DNA of 64,000 nt from Candidatus Babelota bacterium (GCA_013287265.1 JABDEC010000002.1:10105-74104); one strand, 5' to 3'; numbered from the stretch's first letter, positions 1,191 through 4,581 are shown. The notes: generated from the sequence alone by a model not told the origin. A program made the numbers and translations.

Positions 1191-2319
1191 AAAAAAGTTA
1201 ATAGATTTCTTTCAAAACTTATTAATCTCATATTCCGTTCGTCCTGAGTGCCGCACGAAGTGCGGTGTATCGAAGGATGAAAAGTTGTGTTCATGGATTC
1301 GATACGTTTTGTTTCACAAAACACTCACCACGAACGGTATTTTAAAAATAAACTATTTAGTAAGGGATATTTTTCTATTTGGGTTCTTATTTATTAGCAC
1401 TTTTTCCTATTCAAAAAATGTTTTGCAATTTATGCCGGCAAAAGATTTTGAAAGTAGCCAGGCAGATGGACAATTATCAAAATTCTTTTTAAAACATTTG
1501 GAAATGGTTTTTAAACCAGATGTTTTTTTTGAAACAGGTACTTTTAAAGGTTTAACAGCCTTTAATGCAAGCAATTTTTTTAAGGAAGTTTATACAACTG
1601 AATCAAATCAAAATTTATATAATAATTTTTTACAAAAATTCTCACATATTAAGAATATTTACCCTATCTTAGGCAATTCTGGCGAAATTATGAAATTTGT
1701 AATAAATAAGCTAAATAACAAAAAAGTTATATTCTGGCTCGATGAACATGAAGATGAAAGATCTACACCAATTTTAGAAGAATTAAAAGCAATAAAAAAT
1801 GCCAATTTAAAAGACCCGGTAATTTTAATTGATGATATGAGATTCTTTCAACCAAAAACTATTCAAGAATTGATTAATAAAAATTATTACGCAATTAATT
1901 ACCCAACCTTGCAGGATATAAAAAAATTAGCAATAGAAATTAACGCTGATAATGAATTTTTAATTTATGGAGATATCATAATGATTTTCCCAAAATCATT
2001 AAATATTGAAATTCCAGAAATAATTAGAGTTATGACACACAGCCAAATGTACGATGAATCTGACAAATCGTTAGAAATAAAACAAATGGAAATGAAATTA
2101 ACAAAAATAAATGCCCTAGAAAAAACAGCAATTAAACAATTATATAAATTATTTTATTATCCTGAATTGAATTTAGTTAATCGCCATTTCAAATTATGGA
2201 ATGCATTGACGTTAATTGGAGAAAAAAAATTTAATGAAGCAGAAAATATTTTAAAAAGTATTAATGTACATTCAACAAATATTGAACGCATAAATTTTTA
2301 TATTAATCTTTGCAATTAA
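1183..2319 (+). CDS. Putative class I SAM-dependent methyltransferase-like protein with a C-terminal helical repeat; the N-terminal signal-like region is interrupted by a palindromic element
   Basis: FFETGTFKGLTAF...VIFWLDEH...PILEELKAI...ILIDDMRFF resembles Rossmann methyltransferase families of the CmcI/TylF type. It is a paralog of ORF 1..1190. The start codon is uncertain. Confidence 0.55.
   Translation: MFKKKLIDFFQNLLISYSVRPECRTKCGVSKDEKLCSWIRYVLFHKTLTTNGILKINYLVRDIFLFGFLFISTFSYSKNVLQFMPAKDFESSQADGQLSKFFLKHLEMVFKPDVFFETGTFKGLTAFNASNFFKEVYTTESNQNLYNNFLQKFSHIKNIYPILGNSGEIMKFVINKLNNKKVIFWLDEHEDERSTPILEELKAIKNANLKDPVILIDDMRFFQPKTIQELINKNYYAINYPTLQDIKKLAIEINADNEFLIYGDIIMIFPKSLNIEIPEIIRVMTHSQMYDESDKSLEIKQMEMKLTKINALEKTAIKQLYKLFYYPELNLVNRHFKLWNALTLIGEKKFNEAENILKSINVHSTNIERINFYINLCN
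1235..1337. repeat. GC-rich palindromic element, copy A (RPE/MITE-like), inside the 5' coding region of 1183..2319
   Basis: Terminal inverted repeats CCGTTCGTCCTGAGTG ... CACTCACCACGAACGG. Internal hairpins CCGCAC-GAA-GTGCGG and GTATCGAAGG...GGATTCGATAC. Strongly GC-enriched relative to its flanks. Same family as 4498..4581, in the opposite orientation. Confidence 0.75.
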
Positions 2320-2335
2320 AATTTAAGGAAATGTA

Positions 2336-3232
2336 ATGATAAAAAAATTATTAATAATTTTGGTTTTTATTTTTAACATAAATTCTAAAGTTGATCTAAT
2401 TATTTATTCCTACAACCGCCCAATGCAATTATATGCTCTTTTAGAATCAATTGAAAGATATGTTGTTGGAATAGGTAAAACATTTGTTATTTATAGAAGT
2501 GCAAATCAAGAATTTGAAAATAAATATAAAGAAGTGCAGGAAAATTTTACATGGACAGAGTTTGTTGTACACAGTCACACTGAACCATATAAATACTTCA
2601 AACCTATAACTATGGAATGCATTTTTAATAAAGAGAGTAATCCATATTTTTTGATTGCAATGGATGACAACATTGTTACAGATTTTGTAGATCTTGAAGA
2701 TGCAATTACAAATATGGAAAAATTCAGAGCGTTTGCATTTTTCTTAAGACTAGGAACAAATATAAATGAATGTTTCATGACTAAAACAAAAACGCCTGTT
2801 CCATGTTTTAAAATTTTTAAAGGTATTTTTTGCTGGATTTTTAAAAATGGCTCTGGAGATTGGGCTTTCCCAATAAACCATGATATGACTATTTATCGCA
2901 AAAAAGATATGAAAGAAAGTTTGGAAAAATTAGATTTTGACGGATTTCATAATTGGGAAACGAGATGGTGCCAAATGGCAGCAGATATGAATAAACATGG
3001 TTTATGCTATGAGCGTTCCAAGATTGTTAATATAACTGCAAATTTAGTAAATCCAACAGATGGAAATTATGAACAATTTACTTCCGAATGGAAAAGAAAG
3101 ATGAATGATTTTTCAACAGAAAACCTGCTAAAAAAGTTTAATGATGGATTAAAAATTAATATTGATGATTTTTATCAAATTAATAATAAAGCTCCGCATA
3201 TCGAATATGAATACAACTTTATAAAAAGATAA
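2336..3232 (+). CDS. Putative GT-A-fold glycosyltransferase (paralog of 20134..21015)
   Basis: Signal-like N-terminus. DLIIYSYNRPMQLYALLESIERY is like the N-terminal GT-A motif. AMDDNIV is a DxD-like motif. Colinear with the 20134..21015 product. Confidence 0.55.
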   Translation: MIKKLLIILVFIFNINSKVDLIIYSYNRPMQLYALLESIERYVVGIGKTFVIYRSANQEFENKYKEVQENFTWTEFVVHSHTEPYKYFKPITMECIFNKESNPYFLIAMDDNIVTDFVDLEDAITNMEKFRAFAFFLRLGTNINECFMTKTKTPVPCFKIFKGIFCWIFKNGSGDWAFPINHDMTIYRKKDMKESLEKLDFDGFHNWETRWCQMAADMNKHGLCYERSKIVNITANLVNPTDGNYEQFTSEWKRKMNDFSTENLLKKFNDGLKINIDDFYQINNKAPHIEYEYNFIKR

Positions 3233-3238
3233 ATCATA

Positions 3239-4510
3239 GTGTTCACTAAATTCTTAAAATTATTATTTTTATTATTTTTTCTAAAATTAAATTGCAATGA
3301 ACCAAATTTTGTTGTCCTAATAACGTCTTATAATAATGCGCAATGGCATCAATTGAATTTGTCTTCAGTTTTTAATCAGACATATCAAAATTATCGAATT
3401 ATTTATATTGATGATTGCTCAATAGATAAAACTACTGATTTGGTTGAAGAATTTACAAAACAAAATAAAAAAGAAAATAAATTACAATTAATAAGAAACA
3501 AAAAACGTAATTTAAAAATGGCCAATATGTATAATGCCATTCACTCATGTGATGATAATGAAATAATTGTTATTTTAGATGGCGATGATTGGTTTGTACA
3601 TAATGATGCATTAAAAGAAATTGCTGAAGAATATAAAAATAATAATATTTGGCTCACTTATGGAAATTTTTGTAATATAAATGATCCTAAATATATAAAT
3701 AATATCAGTGAAGAAAATTTAAAAAATGTAGCCCACAAAAACATTTTAGAAATTCCCAATCGATTAACAAGAAAAGAAATCATAGAACAAATAGTTCCTG
3801 GCCATCCCTTTACATTTTATGCTTGGCTTTTTAAATTAATTAAATTAAAAGATTTATTATTTCAGGGTTATCTTGCACCAGTTGCTTCAGACACTTCTTT
3901 TATTTGTCCGATTATGGAACTTTGTGGTGATAGATTCAAATTTATACCAAAAGTATATTACATCCATAATATAATAAATGAATTAAATGATCATAAAGTT
4001 AATGGCAACCTACAAATGGCAATAGCAGATTTTGTTGCAAATAAAGAAAGATATCAACAAATTGAAAAAAAAATTGTGAATAATTTTGAAAACATCAACT
4101 ATGATCAAATCGTTTTTTCAGAAAAATTGGAAATAAATCAATTTAAATCTGATTTTATATTTTTAACAAATGAAGAAAATAAAGATTTAGATATTGTGGA
4201 AAGTCTTAAAATGATGGCTCAAGCTGGAGCTGCAATCTGTTACTTAAATCTTGAAAAAGAAAAATTTGATCAACAAATTATAAAATTTAATGAAATATCA
4301 AATAAATTTAATCCAAACAATAAAACTTTTGTTTGGCAAAACAAATATTCAATTTTAAGCTTTGAATTGCCAATTTTAATAACAAAAGAATTATTTTTTA
4401 AGATATTAAATAAAATTAATAATGATATTTCAAAATTTAAAAATGAACTTAATAATTTATCCATAAATTATCCATTAGATACAGCTCTTTTTATTAACCG
4501 CTCGTGGTGA
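3239..4510 (+). CDS. Family 2 glycosyltransferase
   Basis: VVLITSYNNAQWHQLNLSSVFNQTYQNYRIIYIDDCSIDKT and ILDGDDWF are GT2 signatures. GTG start. The last codons and the stop lie inside repeat element B. Confidence 0.8.
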   Translation: MFTKFLKLLFLLFFLKLNCNEPNFVVLITSYNNAQWHQLNLSSVFNQTYQNYRIIYIDDCSIDKTTDLVEEFTKQNKKENKLQLIRNKKRNLKMANMYNAIHSCDDNEIIVILDGDDWFVHNDALKEIAEEYKNNNIWLTYGNFCNINDPKYINNISEENLKNVAHKNILEIPNRLTRKEIIEQIVPGHPFTFYAWLFKLIKLKDLLFQGYLAPVASDTSFICPIMELCGDRFKFIPKVYYIHNIINELNDHKVNGNLQMAIADFVANKERYQQIEKKIVNNFENINYDQIVFSEKLEINQFKSDFIFLTNEENKDLDIVESLKMMAQAGAAICYLNLEKEKFDQQIIKFNEISNKFNPNNKTFVWQNKYSILSFELPILITKELFFKILNKINNDISKFKNELNNLSINYPLDTALFINRSW

Positions 4511-4581
4511 GCCTGTCGAACCATTCGAGCATAGTAAAGTTGAATTTTGTTCGTATCCTTCGACTAGCTCAGGACGAACGG
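4498..4581. repeat. GC-rich palindromic element, copy B (same family as copy A, inverted)
   Basis: CCGCTCGTGGTGAG ... CTCAGGACGAACGG, with shared internal TCGAAC(C)AT / ATCCTTCGA. 42/84 G+C by my count. It supplies the last 4 codons (NRSW) and the TGA stop of 3239..4510. Confidence 0.75.

Follow-up and report, generated by a model that had tools for sequence, protein, structure and literature searches.

Small palindromic repeats are usually lineage-specific. This account concerns two palindromic elements, A and B, in a 64-kb stretch of DNA from a Candidatus Babelota bacterium (GCA_013287265.1 JABDEC010000002.1:10105-74104; 27.3% G+C), which is referred to as the window and from whose first letter all positions are counted. 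An initial annotation, made from the sequence alone, had singled out A and B as palindromes embedded in coding sequence. We consider it likely that A, B and, probably, a third insert at 10270-10445 belong to one non-autonomous, horizontally spreading family of palindromic repeats, akin to REPINs, MITEs and the Rickettsia palindromic elements (RPEs), and that genic copies survive only where they preserve the reading frame. The family is best filed with repeats of the REP/REPIN/MITE kind, among which its invariance across phyla and its covariation in the form of a four-way junction are unusual.

Several described systems resemble these elements. RPEs (Ogata et al. 2000, as cited in PMC3184786 and PMC2229807) are palindromic repeats of about 100-150 nt that are inserted in frame in protein genes and kept as extra peptide segments. 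RPE-4 and RPE-6 are CGTC-tagged repeats with stems of 8-9 bp and loops of 4-5 nt, and REP elements of other families lie in open reading frames (ORFs) and supply stop codons (PMC3733652). REPINs are reported to be lineage-specific and vertically inherited. Bacterial MITEs (Correia/NEMIS, ERIC, RUP and Nezha) have terminal inverted repeats of about 27 nt, give long-hairpin transcripts and in some cases contain open frames and form gene fusions (PMC2229807, PMC3184786). The CcrM-associated intergenic repeat (CIR) of Caulobacter, as described in PMC2229807, is about 110 nt long, consists of two arms and a linker, and is highly conserved between alpha-proteobacterial species, its mobility mechanism being unknown; it has a GANTC in the loop and stops in all six frames, and it lies outside genes.

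Elements A and B and their host genes

The features on which the argument depends are as follows; bit scores refer to the unit model described in the next section.

1183..2319, + strand: host gene of A, a 378-aa protein with a signal-like N-terminus in which the insert forms residues 17-59 (ORF list; homologues P0002-P0006 lack the insert)
1230..1358, + strand: block kept between independent A copies, 129 nt or 43 codons, YSVRPE...ILKINYL (97% identity to L001 715-843)
1235..1337, + strand: element A, palindromic core of 103 nt, extended-loop variant (termini, folds, 48.5% G+C), composed of a terminal stem, a left arm TCC/GGA and a right arm TGG/(T)CCA
1250..1266, + strand: extra hairpin X (GCCGCAC GAA GTGCGGT) in the left arm loop of A (fold; identical in L001, L126 and L124)
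1267..1305, + strand: central hairpin of A (GTATCGAAGGATGAA...TTCATGGATTCGATAC; fold; alignment A7)
1306..1322, + strand: extra hairpin X' (GTTTTGT TTC ACAAAAC) in the right arm loop of A (fold; compensatory changes in L126)
1338-1358, + strand: AT-rich tail of the A block, 21 nt, part of 1230..1358
3239..4510, + strand: GT2 glycosyltransferase gene, with its last codons (RSW) and stop inside B (Pfam PF00535, E 2e-18)
4498..4581, + strand: element B, 84 nt, canonical family member in the orientation opposite to A (termini, folds, 50% G+C)
4498..4530, + strand: left arm unit of B (CCGCTCG TGG T GAGCCTGTCGA A CCA ...), which holds the GT2 TGA at 4508-4510 (39.2 bits, E 2e-4)
4549..4581, - strand: right arm unit of B (CCGTTCG TCC T GAGCTAGTCGA A GGA ...; 37.5 bits, E 3e-4)
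4595..5710, + strand: GT10-like glycosyltransferase gene, starting 14 nt past B (Pfam PF00852)
10270..10445, + strand: probable third, decayed copy, 51% G+C, 59 codons in frame in ORF 9858-10826 (absent in three paralogues)
10365..10381, + strand: arm core in the third insert (CCTGAGCATGTCGAAGG; 15.5 bits, E 0.65)

The termini CCGTTCGTCCTGAG / CTCACCACGARCGG are common to both elements. Element A reads CCGTTCGTCCTGAG...CTCACCACGAACGG and element B CCGCTCGTGGTGAG...CTCAGGACGAACGG, so that B has the same ends as A in reversed orientation. The terminal motif CCGYTCGYSSTGAG, with up to two mismatches, occurs at four sites in the 64 kb, exactly at 1235, 1337(-), 4498 and 4581(-), against 0.12 expected from shuffles, and none of 100 shuffles reaches four. 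The initial annotation had described A and B as the same element in opposite orientations, each about 50% G+C in an AT-rich background. Its coordinates and sequences are correct, as is the composition (48.5% in A and 50.0% in B against 27.3%), and the peptides that it read from the termini (PFVLS, VRPE, LAQDER and D*LRTN) are found in six-frame translations of the two elements. Sameness extends to the termini and to the TCGAA..CCAT / ATCCTTCGA cores, which are shared and reversed; the interiors differ, A being a variant and B canonical.

Element A lies in frame in ORF 1183-2319, flanked by MFKKKLIDFFQNLLIS and VRDIFLFGFLFISTF, and adds 43 codons between the start and the hydrophobic core. It does indeed split the signal-like N-terminus of that ORF, between the basic start and the hydrophobic core, and keeps the frame; the 43 residues are presumably translated, and the signal peptide might still work. 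The GT2 ORF ends in NRSW-TGA, and the first base of B is the third of the Asn codon. Element B supplies the stop codon, as had been claimed, together with three full codons rather than four. Every arm of the family has a TGA in one frame, derived from CTGAG or GTGAG, and it is because the arm frame holds this TGA that GT2 ends within B. Two repeat copies, and probably three, lie in or at the ends of sugar-modification genes with reading frames intact. Were 4498-4581 removed exactly, the GT2 frame would run on into the ATG of GT10 without meeting a stop, so that probably either the limits of B lie a base or two away from those given or an ancestral GT2 stop has been lost. The sequence GGGAG, formed by the end of B and its flank, stands 10 nt upstream of the GT10-like ATG and might serve in ribosome binding.

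Comparison with homologues and relatives supports the proposal of the initial annotation that A and B are secondary insertions. The N-termini of the five homologues of ORF 1183-2319, which are 28-34% identical to it, are short and signal-like, and the 43-residue block is missing from each. In the syntenic relative L129, a contig of 27% G+C that holds P0003, the homologue of ORF 2336, GT2 and GT10 follow in the same order as in the window; no element is present at the ORF 1183 homologue or at the GT2-GT10 junction, where the two genes overlap by 14 nt. The A block 1230-1358 is found at 97% identity over 129 nt in P0007, an unrelated protein of 343 residues encoded in L001 (29% G+C), where the start codon and the stop codon of the upstream gene overlap and the block follows in frame within a few codons. 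The N-terminus of P0007 reads MTKILKILL, block, SFVKCLLTFLLIIPFSIFS, and the block thereby falls between a basic start and a hydrophobic core, as in ORF 1183-2319; the sequences that flank the block in L001 and in the window are unrelated. L001 also has a B-type copy, 77% identical, 17 nt past a stop codon, and the AT-rich contig L126 (29.7% G+C) has an A-type copy in an intergenic spacer between convergent genes.

The occurrence of the same peptide at the same place in two signal peptides could be taken to mean that the block is an ordinary protein module, a shared leader exchanged between genes, with palindromic DNA as a by-product. In a HMMER search of 1.84 billion representatives, however, the only real match to the peptide of A was the window's own protein (two others were biased repeat proteins), homologues lack the block, the same DNA lies between genes in L126 and L124, and it belongs to a family defined at the nucleotide level. 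The shared frame has a simpler origin: only one frame of the 129-nt block is without stop codons, and for this reason the block is read in the same frame in ORF 1183-2319 and P0007. An exchanged protein module is therefore very improbable and close to refuted. There is even less to be said for assembly chimeras or contamination in a metagenome-derived contig, which the foreign G+C of the inserts might bring to mind: reading frames run through all three inserts, two AT-rich assemblies of independent origin (L001 and L126) have copies that are related or nearly identical, and the inserts are shorter than a sequencing read, so that we give this explanation scarcely any weight.

The third insert, 10270-10445, is the sole other strongly GC-rich island in the window that is not a tRNA. 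It has no counterpart in three window paralogues of its ORF (5700-, 7222- and 17509-), which are 51-59% identical to it on both sides of the insert. A single arm core, CCTGAGCATGTCGAAGGGGCG, is identical at 20 of 21 positions to arms from other phyla; the match to the unit model is weak, and neither termini nor a strong fold were found in the insert. With moderate confidence, we take it from this sequence evidence to be a decayed copy of the repeat family. The remaining G+C peaks of the window were considered as extra copies and rejected, being ordinary coding sequence without strong folds. The four paralogues (5700-7211, 7222-9825, 9858-10826 and 17509-18345) have a common N-terminal domain of about 300 residues (51-59% identity); in two of them it is joined by an FkbM methyltransferase domain, and one of the two carries ankyrin repeats as well.

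A 33-nt module with covarying triplets

Membership of A and B in a wider family can be judged from a unit model that was built solely from loci of other genomes and phyla, with no window sequences. The termini CCGTTCG-NNN-TGAG ... CTCA-NNN-CGAACGG are present on both A and B, and the same pattern recurs in at least 120 loci elsewhere. Both arms of B match the unit model well, and B is a canonical member. The arms of A score only 10 and 8 bits, because each arm loop carries an inserted hairpin; A is a variant in which X and X' have been inserted in the loops GAG...TCGA. The inserted-hairpin feature is also present in L031, L044, L070, L093 and L124, with several proteobacterial loci among its carriers. 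The copy in L126 differs from A by compensatory changes: its left triplets are CCC/GGG instead of TCC/GGA, and the stem of X' is GTTCTAC/GTAGAAC instead of GTTTTGT/ACAAAAC.

A family element consists of two inverted 33-nt modules around a variable centre. Each module, or arm, has the form CCGTTCG-NNN-T GAGCYTGTCGA A-N'N'N', and 15 of its 33 positions are invariant among 140 distinct units from across phyla. The unit stem comprises 5 covarying base pairs, extending to 11 bp in a subset, and encloses a conserved loop of 11 nt. Family size is about 75-105 nt (the copies here are 84-129 nt), and the spacing of arm cores within an element is mostly 25-57 nt. Triplet variants include CCC, TGC, TGG, TCC and CGC.

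It is the triplets that reveal how the arms pair. The search pattern limited the outer triplet to Y-S-S and left the inner partner free; the inner triplet is nevertheless the exact complement of the outer triplet of its own arm in 214 of 238 arms. A perfect palindrome would need identical outer triplets at its two ends, a state found in only 19 of 125 elements. Among the 140 distinct units, 98% of cells are paired, compared with 78.7% in shuffles, and double changes number 145 (a value that none of 500 shuffles reaches), compared with 61; slid registers give 31-60% pairing. In 86 canonical elements, full pairing is found in 80 and 81 in the arm-internal register, and in just 10 and 9 in the across-arm register that a plain long hairpin would need. 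The base of the central stem is paired at 4.2 of 7 positions (2.7 for shuffled partners), and the 11-nt loops of the two arms are complementary at 11 of 11 positions in 56 of the 86 elements. Elements A and B follow the triplet rule, with TCC/GGA in one arm and TGG/CCA in the other, which is why each has a CC/CC mismatch. The covariance analysis suggested by the initial annotation thus places the covariation within arms and not between them.

Both elements fold strongly as RNA, with -45.5 kcal/mol for A (z -6.1 against shuffles) and -32.3 kcal/mol for B (z -4.0); with DNA parameters, the z-scores are -6.4 and -3.0, respectively. The long hairpin originally described is the minimum-energy fold of A and B, but the compensatory changes favour arm hairpins. 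They support a four-way junction built from a terminal stem (CCGTTCG/CGAACGG), a short hairpin in each arm with the conserved 11-nt loop, and a central hairpin that varies. The pair that closes the arm helix, at positions 7/27 (alignment A6), is most often G-C (91 of 140 units), with G-T in a further 45. A T at unit position 27 accompanies the inner heptamer TGAACGG, which is the perfect partner of CCGTTCA in the other arm and can pair with the outer CCGTTCG only as G-T.

The strong folds and the covariation of the arm helices, including G-U at one pair in 45 of 140 units, could be expected of functional structured RNAs, such as small RNAs or hairpins that stabilise or process mRNA, maintained by selection and only incidentally located in coding sequence. 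The usual site of the family, unannotated intergenic DNA, would suit such RNAs, as would a weak resemblance of B to RF02901, an expressed small RNA of Aggregatibacter. Yet the element is a near-perfect palindrome, so that the two arms of any transcript are of opposite sense and what is G-T in one is an A-C mismatch in the other; apart from the closing pair, wobble is nearly absent (3 of 420 cells). A stabilising hairpin would need no invariant loop sequence, there is no T-run terminator at A or B, and no Rfam family reaches threshold. Tandem arrays and in-frame genic copies are better suited to mobile DNA, and we judge a structured RNA to be improbable.

Rfam reports only the two tRNAs of the window above threshold, and nothing in 17 element loci. 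Below threshold, B matches RF02901 best, with 17 bits where the gathering score is 97, over 4439-4634. The RF02901 consensus has CUGAGCUUGCCGAAGCAU ... AUGGUUCGGCAAGCUCAG, the same arm loop in inverted copies, and because of this the 'small RNA' may be a relative of the repeat family. It differs in its outer stems, and it is catalogued as a single-species small RNA (AaHKsRNA41) and not as a dispersed repeat. Pfam assigns no family to the element peptides. Literature searches with peptide and DNA motif strings gave nothing relevant, and concept searches gave papers on REP, RAYT and MITE only; no curated name for the family and no mobilising enzyme were found in these searches. Two other identities were tried for A and B and rejected: a tRNA- or tmRNA-like cloverleaf (ARAGORN and Rfam call tRNA-Lys and tRNA-Leu at 44772-44957 alone) and an intrinsic terminator (no call, no T-run).

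Distribution, proposed mobility and relation to described repeats

One genome per GTDB species was scanned with the pattern CCGTTCGYSSTGAG-N46-76-CTCASSRCGARCGG, and this two-terminus pattern was found at no fewer than the 120 loci already mentioned, in at least eight phyla. Hosts of the matches listed were assigned by record title. They include many Sphingomonadales; Burkholderiales, Gallionella, Methylococcales, Lysobacterales and a Tatlockia (Legionellaceae); Chloroflexota, Dehalococcoidia and SAR202, among them a 2.38-Mb chromosome and a 3.19-Mb contig; and Fibrobacteres, Methylomirabilis, Nitrospirales, Geomonas, Moduliflexus and Wallbacteria. The G+C content of these matches ranges from 39% to 71% per locus, and with the window included the hosts span 27% to 71%. 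In a plasmid collection, the element is found mostly on megaplasmids of Sphingobium, where the count reaches 13 places per Mb, and the plasmid records have no annotation under the copies. None of 5,426 E. coli genomes contains the element, and hardly any phage record does. Elements of other phyla translate to PFVLSLSKHE, VRPELVEG, VRPEPVEG, LRQAQDER, FDKLRANG, FDKLTTNG and PSTSSGRTG. The initial annotation had compared the termini with such peptides from many phyla and supposed the repeat to be widely dispersed and poorly characterised; the DNA-level distribution and these translations bear out the first two points, and the lack of Rfam, Pfam, literature and plasmid annotation is consistent with the third.

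Copies in distant hosts can be very similar. In L124, a metagenome contig of 60% G+C, positions 1095-1140 are 100% identical to window positions 1236-1281, the 46 nt of the left arm of A including X. This copy is intergenic, and its A-like arm is paired with a canonical arm in a hybrid element, from which we read that arms combine modularly. A 22-mer match in L125, a contig of 67% G+C, comprises the inserted-hairpin sequence alone with no element, and was taken as chance. An extended-loop variant lies at 4927-5024 of L119, a metagenome-assembled genome (MAG) of a Tatlockia (39% G+C); its host represents another amoeba-associated intracellular lineage, which may be relevant to acquisition of the family by an AT-rich intracellular bacterium. 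The distribution, taken with a 46-nt identity across a 33-point gap in G+C, suggests horizontal spread.

Most copies look intergenic, and some lie within real genes. The elements are stop-free in two to four of the six frames. In L121, an E2 acyltransferase has the element as its residues 308-335, after the lipoyl domain (180-252) and before the E3-binding domain (338-371). In L102, from a Methylococcaceae MAG, 16 arm units in tandem and inverted arrangement occupy 1633-2364 inside a heparinase II/III-like gene, contributing about 185 residues (387-571) between the N- and C-terminal domains of the protein. In L116, a reading frame for a UvrD-like helicase has one copy in its C-terminal part.

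The flanks of the elements hold at most 0.3 bit of information per position, and no target-site duplication was detected above control level: abutting repeats of at least 3 nt occur in 2.4% of cases against 3.1% in controls, and with any offset up to 14 nt allowed, repeats of 4 nt or longer in 20 of 123 against 17.6 +/- 4.5. Flank complementarity beyond the termini, apparent by eye, was not above that of shuffled partners. Unit pairs 1.2-5.6 kb apart occur three times in 956 kb; the two that were looked at (L054 and L047) enclose no transposase-like ORF. No RAYT (Y1 transposase) gene was found between distant unit pairs or as a recurrent neighbour in the 120 loci listed.

This lack of a transposase and of target-site duplications would be natural if the elements were DNA-level host sites, cruciforms or four-way junctions bound by a conserved host protein of recombination, replication or the nucleoid and retained as useful. 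The 15 invariant positions of the 33-nt unit and the four-way-junction geometry are also in keeping with such a role. On the other hand, presence varies among paralogues, homologues and the syntenic relative, the element is patchy among taxa and missing from E. coli, copies sit at arbitrary places that include coding sequence, and the 46-nt identity between organisms of 27% and 60% G+C is left unexplained; a host-site origin is accordingly a decidedly improbable one.

We return to a horizontally spreading repeat family as the likeliest explanation. The elements would be secondary insertions, non-autonomous and copied or moved in trans, perhaps via a folded single-strand intermediate. An enzyme acting in trans might recognise the covarying stems by their structure and the loop and terminal stem by their invariant sequence, and leave no target-site duplication. 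An HUH/Y1 transposase of the RAYT or IS200/IS605 (TnpA) type would be the most likely candidate, although no such gene is linked to the elements here. Selection would then act as a filter. The family is stop-free in several frames, and for that reason genic copies could persist where an open frame meets a tolerant position: in the window at the n-/h-region junction of a signal peptide, at the very 3' end of a gene and in a stretch that varies among paralogues, and elsewhere in inter-domain linkers.

Several observations weigh against this explanation. The window holds just two or three copies in 64 kb, and 60 kb of related AT-rich loci, L129 included, hold no units of the family. No transposase was found among 18 window ORFs scanned, and neither a transposase nor any other recurrent gene near the 120 loci listed; the mobilising enzyme is consequently one that we infer. 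The invariance of loop and terminal stem across phyla could reflect host function rather than selfish spread, and a weak, sub-threshold relative is catalogued as an expressed small RNA (RF02901). Element boundaries are inexact, so a short or offset target-site duplication may yet be concealed. The minimum-energy fold leaves the triplets in internal loops of a long hairpin and is not the four-way junction. Finally, the non-proteobacterial hosts are all MAGs, but two of the contigs are of megabase size (L040 and L103). A bolder version, in which module and junction define a pan-bacterial mobile element beyond known transposase families, processed by an unrecognised structure-specific enzyme or a host junction-processing enzyme, transferred across phyla so frequently that a 46-nt arm stays identical between genomes of 27% and 60% G+C, and acting as a recurrent source of peptides in signal sequences, inter-domain linkers and C-termini, is conceivable, and we hold it to be unlikely.

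The likeness to RPEs, on which the initial annotation had drawn, is one of behaviour: a palindromic repeat inserted in frame in genes of an AT-rich, probably intracellular bacterium and absent from orthologues. The parallel holds for frame-preserving insertion, as an analogy and not as membership. To our knowledge, RPEs have been described from Rickettsia only, whereas the present family occurs in many phyla. The anatomy of RPE-4 and RPE-6 is not found here, the unit having a 5-bp covarying stem, an 11-nt loop and no CGTC tag.

REP and REPIN elements are closer in build, with a stem-loop unit of about 33 nt, two inverted units of which form a larger hairpin with a short spacer. They are likewise mostly intergenic, without target-site duplication, with occasional copies in ORFs and copies that supply stops (PMC3733652). 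The present unit differs in having neither a GTAG nor a CGTC tag, beginning instead with an invariant CCGTTCG, and in its conserved 11-nt loop, where REP loops are variable and of 4-5 nt; no RAYT gene was seen adjoining units of the family. Nor does the lineage-specificity reported for REPINs extend to a unit that is nearly invariant in at least eight phyla and over the whole G+C range of its hosts. With MITEs, the family shares small size, lack of autonomy and terminal inverted repeats, the arms being inverted copies. It differs in the absence of target-site duplication, in that the distant unit pairs looked at revealed no parent insertion sequence sharing its ends, and in arm-internal covariation, which is not a feature of transposase-binding inverted repeats. 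CIR is similar in size, two-arm build and conservation between species, and is the main candidate for an earlier description of the family, compared here by description only. On that description CIR would differ from the family, since the canonical unit has no GANTC and is open in several frames.

A nearly invariant module in so many phyla and so wide a range of G+C implies either that the enzyme recognising it is very widespread or that horizontal transfer is frequent. For annotation, the family is a source of many spurious 'hypothetical proteins' (PFVLSLSKHE, FDKLRANG and similar), unannotated in the records examined, which a covariance model of the 33-nt unit would mask. For protein evolution, the window cases (the third probable) have copy-free comparators and show DNA absorbed into coding sequence as a signal-peptide insert, as a C-terminus with stop codon and as a 59-residue internal insert, in parallel with the E2 acyltransferase linker and the heparinase-like enzyme. 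The four-way junction offers a concrete substrate for biochemical work.

Other features of the window

Upstream of the host gene of A lies a DOT1-like methyltransferase ORF (132-1190), the first ~145 residues of which are homologous to the C-terminal half of the family of ORF 1183-2319 (YPTL...INP.Y...YGD); adjacent, overlapping genes would thus seem to have a domain in common. On the - strand, 10834-12585 and 13577-15251 form a diverged multi-gene duplication with an offset of about 2.7 kb and 73-84% identity, which comprises the repeat families D5, D7, D13, D14, D16, D18 and D20. The genes for tRNA-Lys(CTT) and tRNA-Leu(TAG) stand side by side at 44772-44957. The listed GTG start of the trigger-factor ORF (44877-46289) overlaps tRNA-Leu, so the true start probably lies further downstream. 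DnaE, ArgRS, ThrRS and a PBP, also encoded in the window, mark its source as a bacterium.

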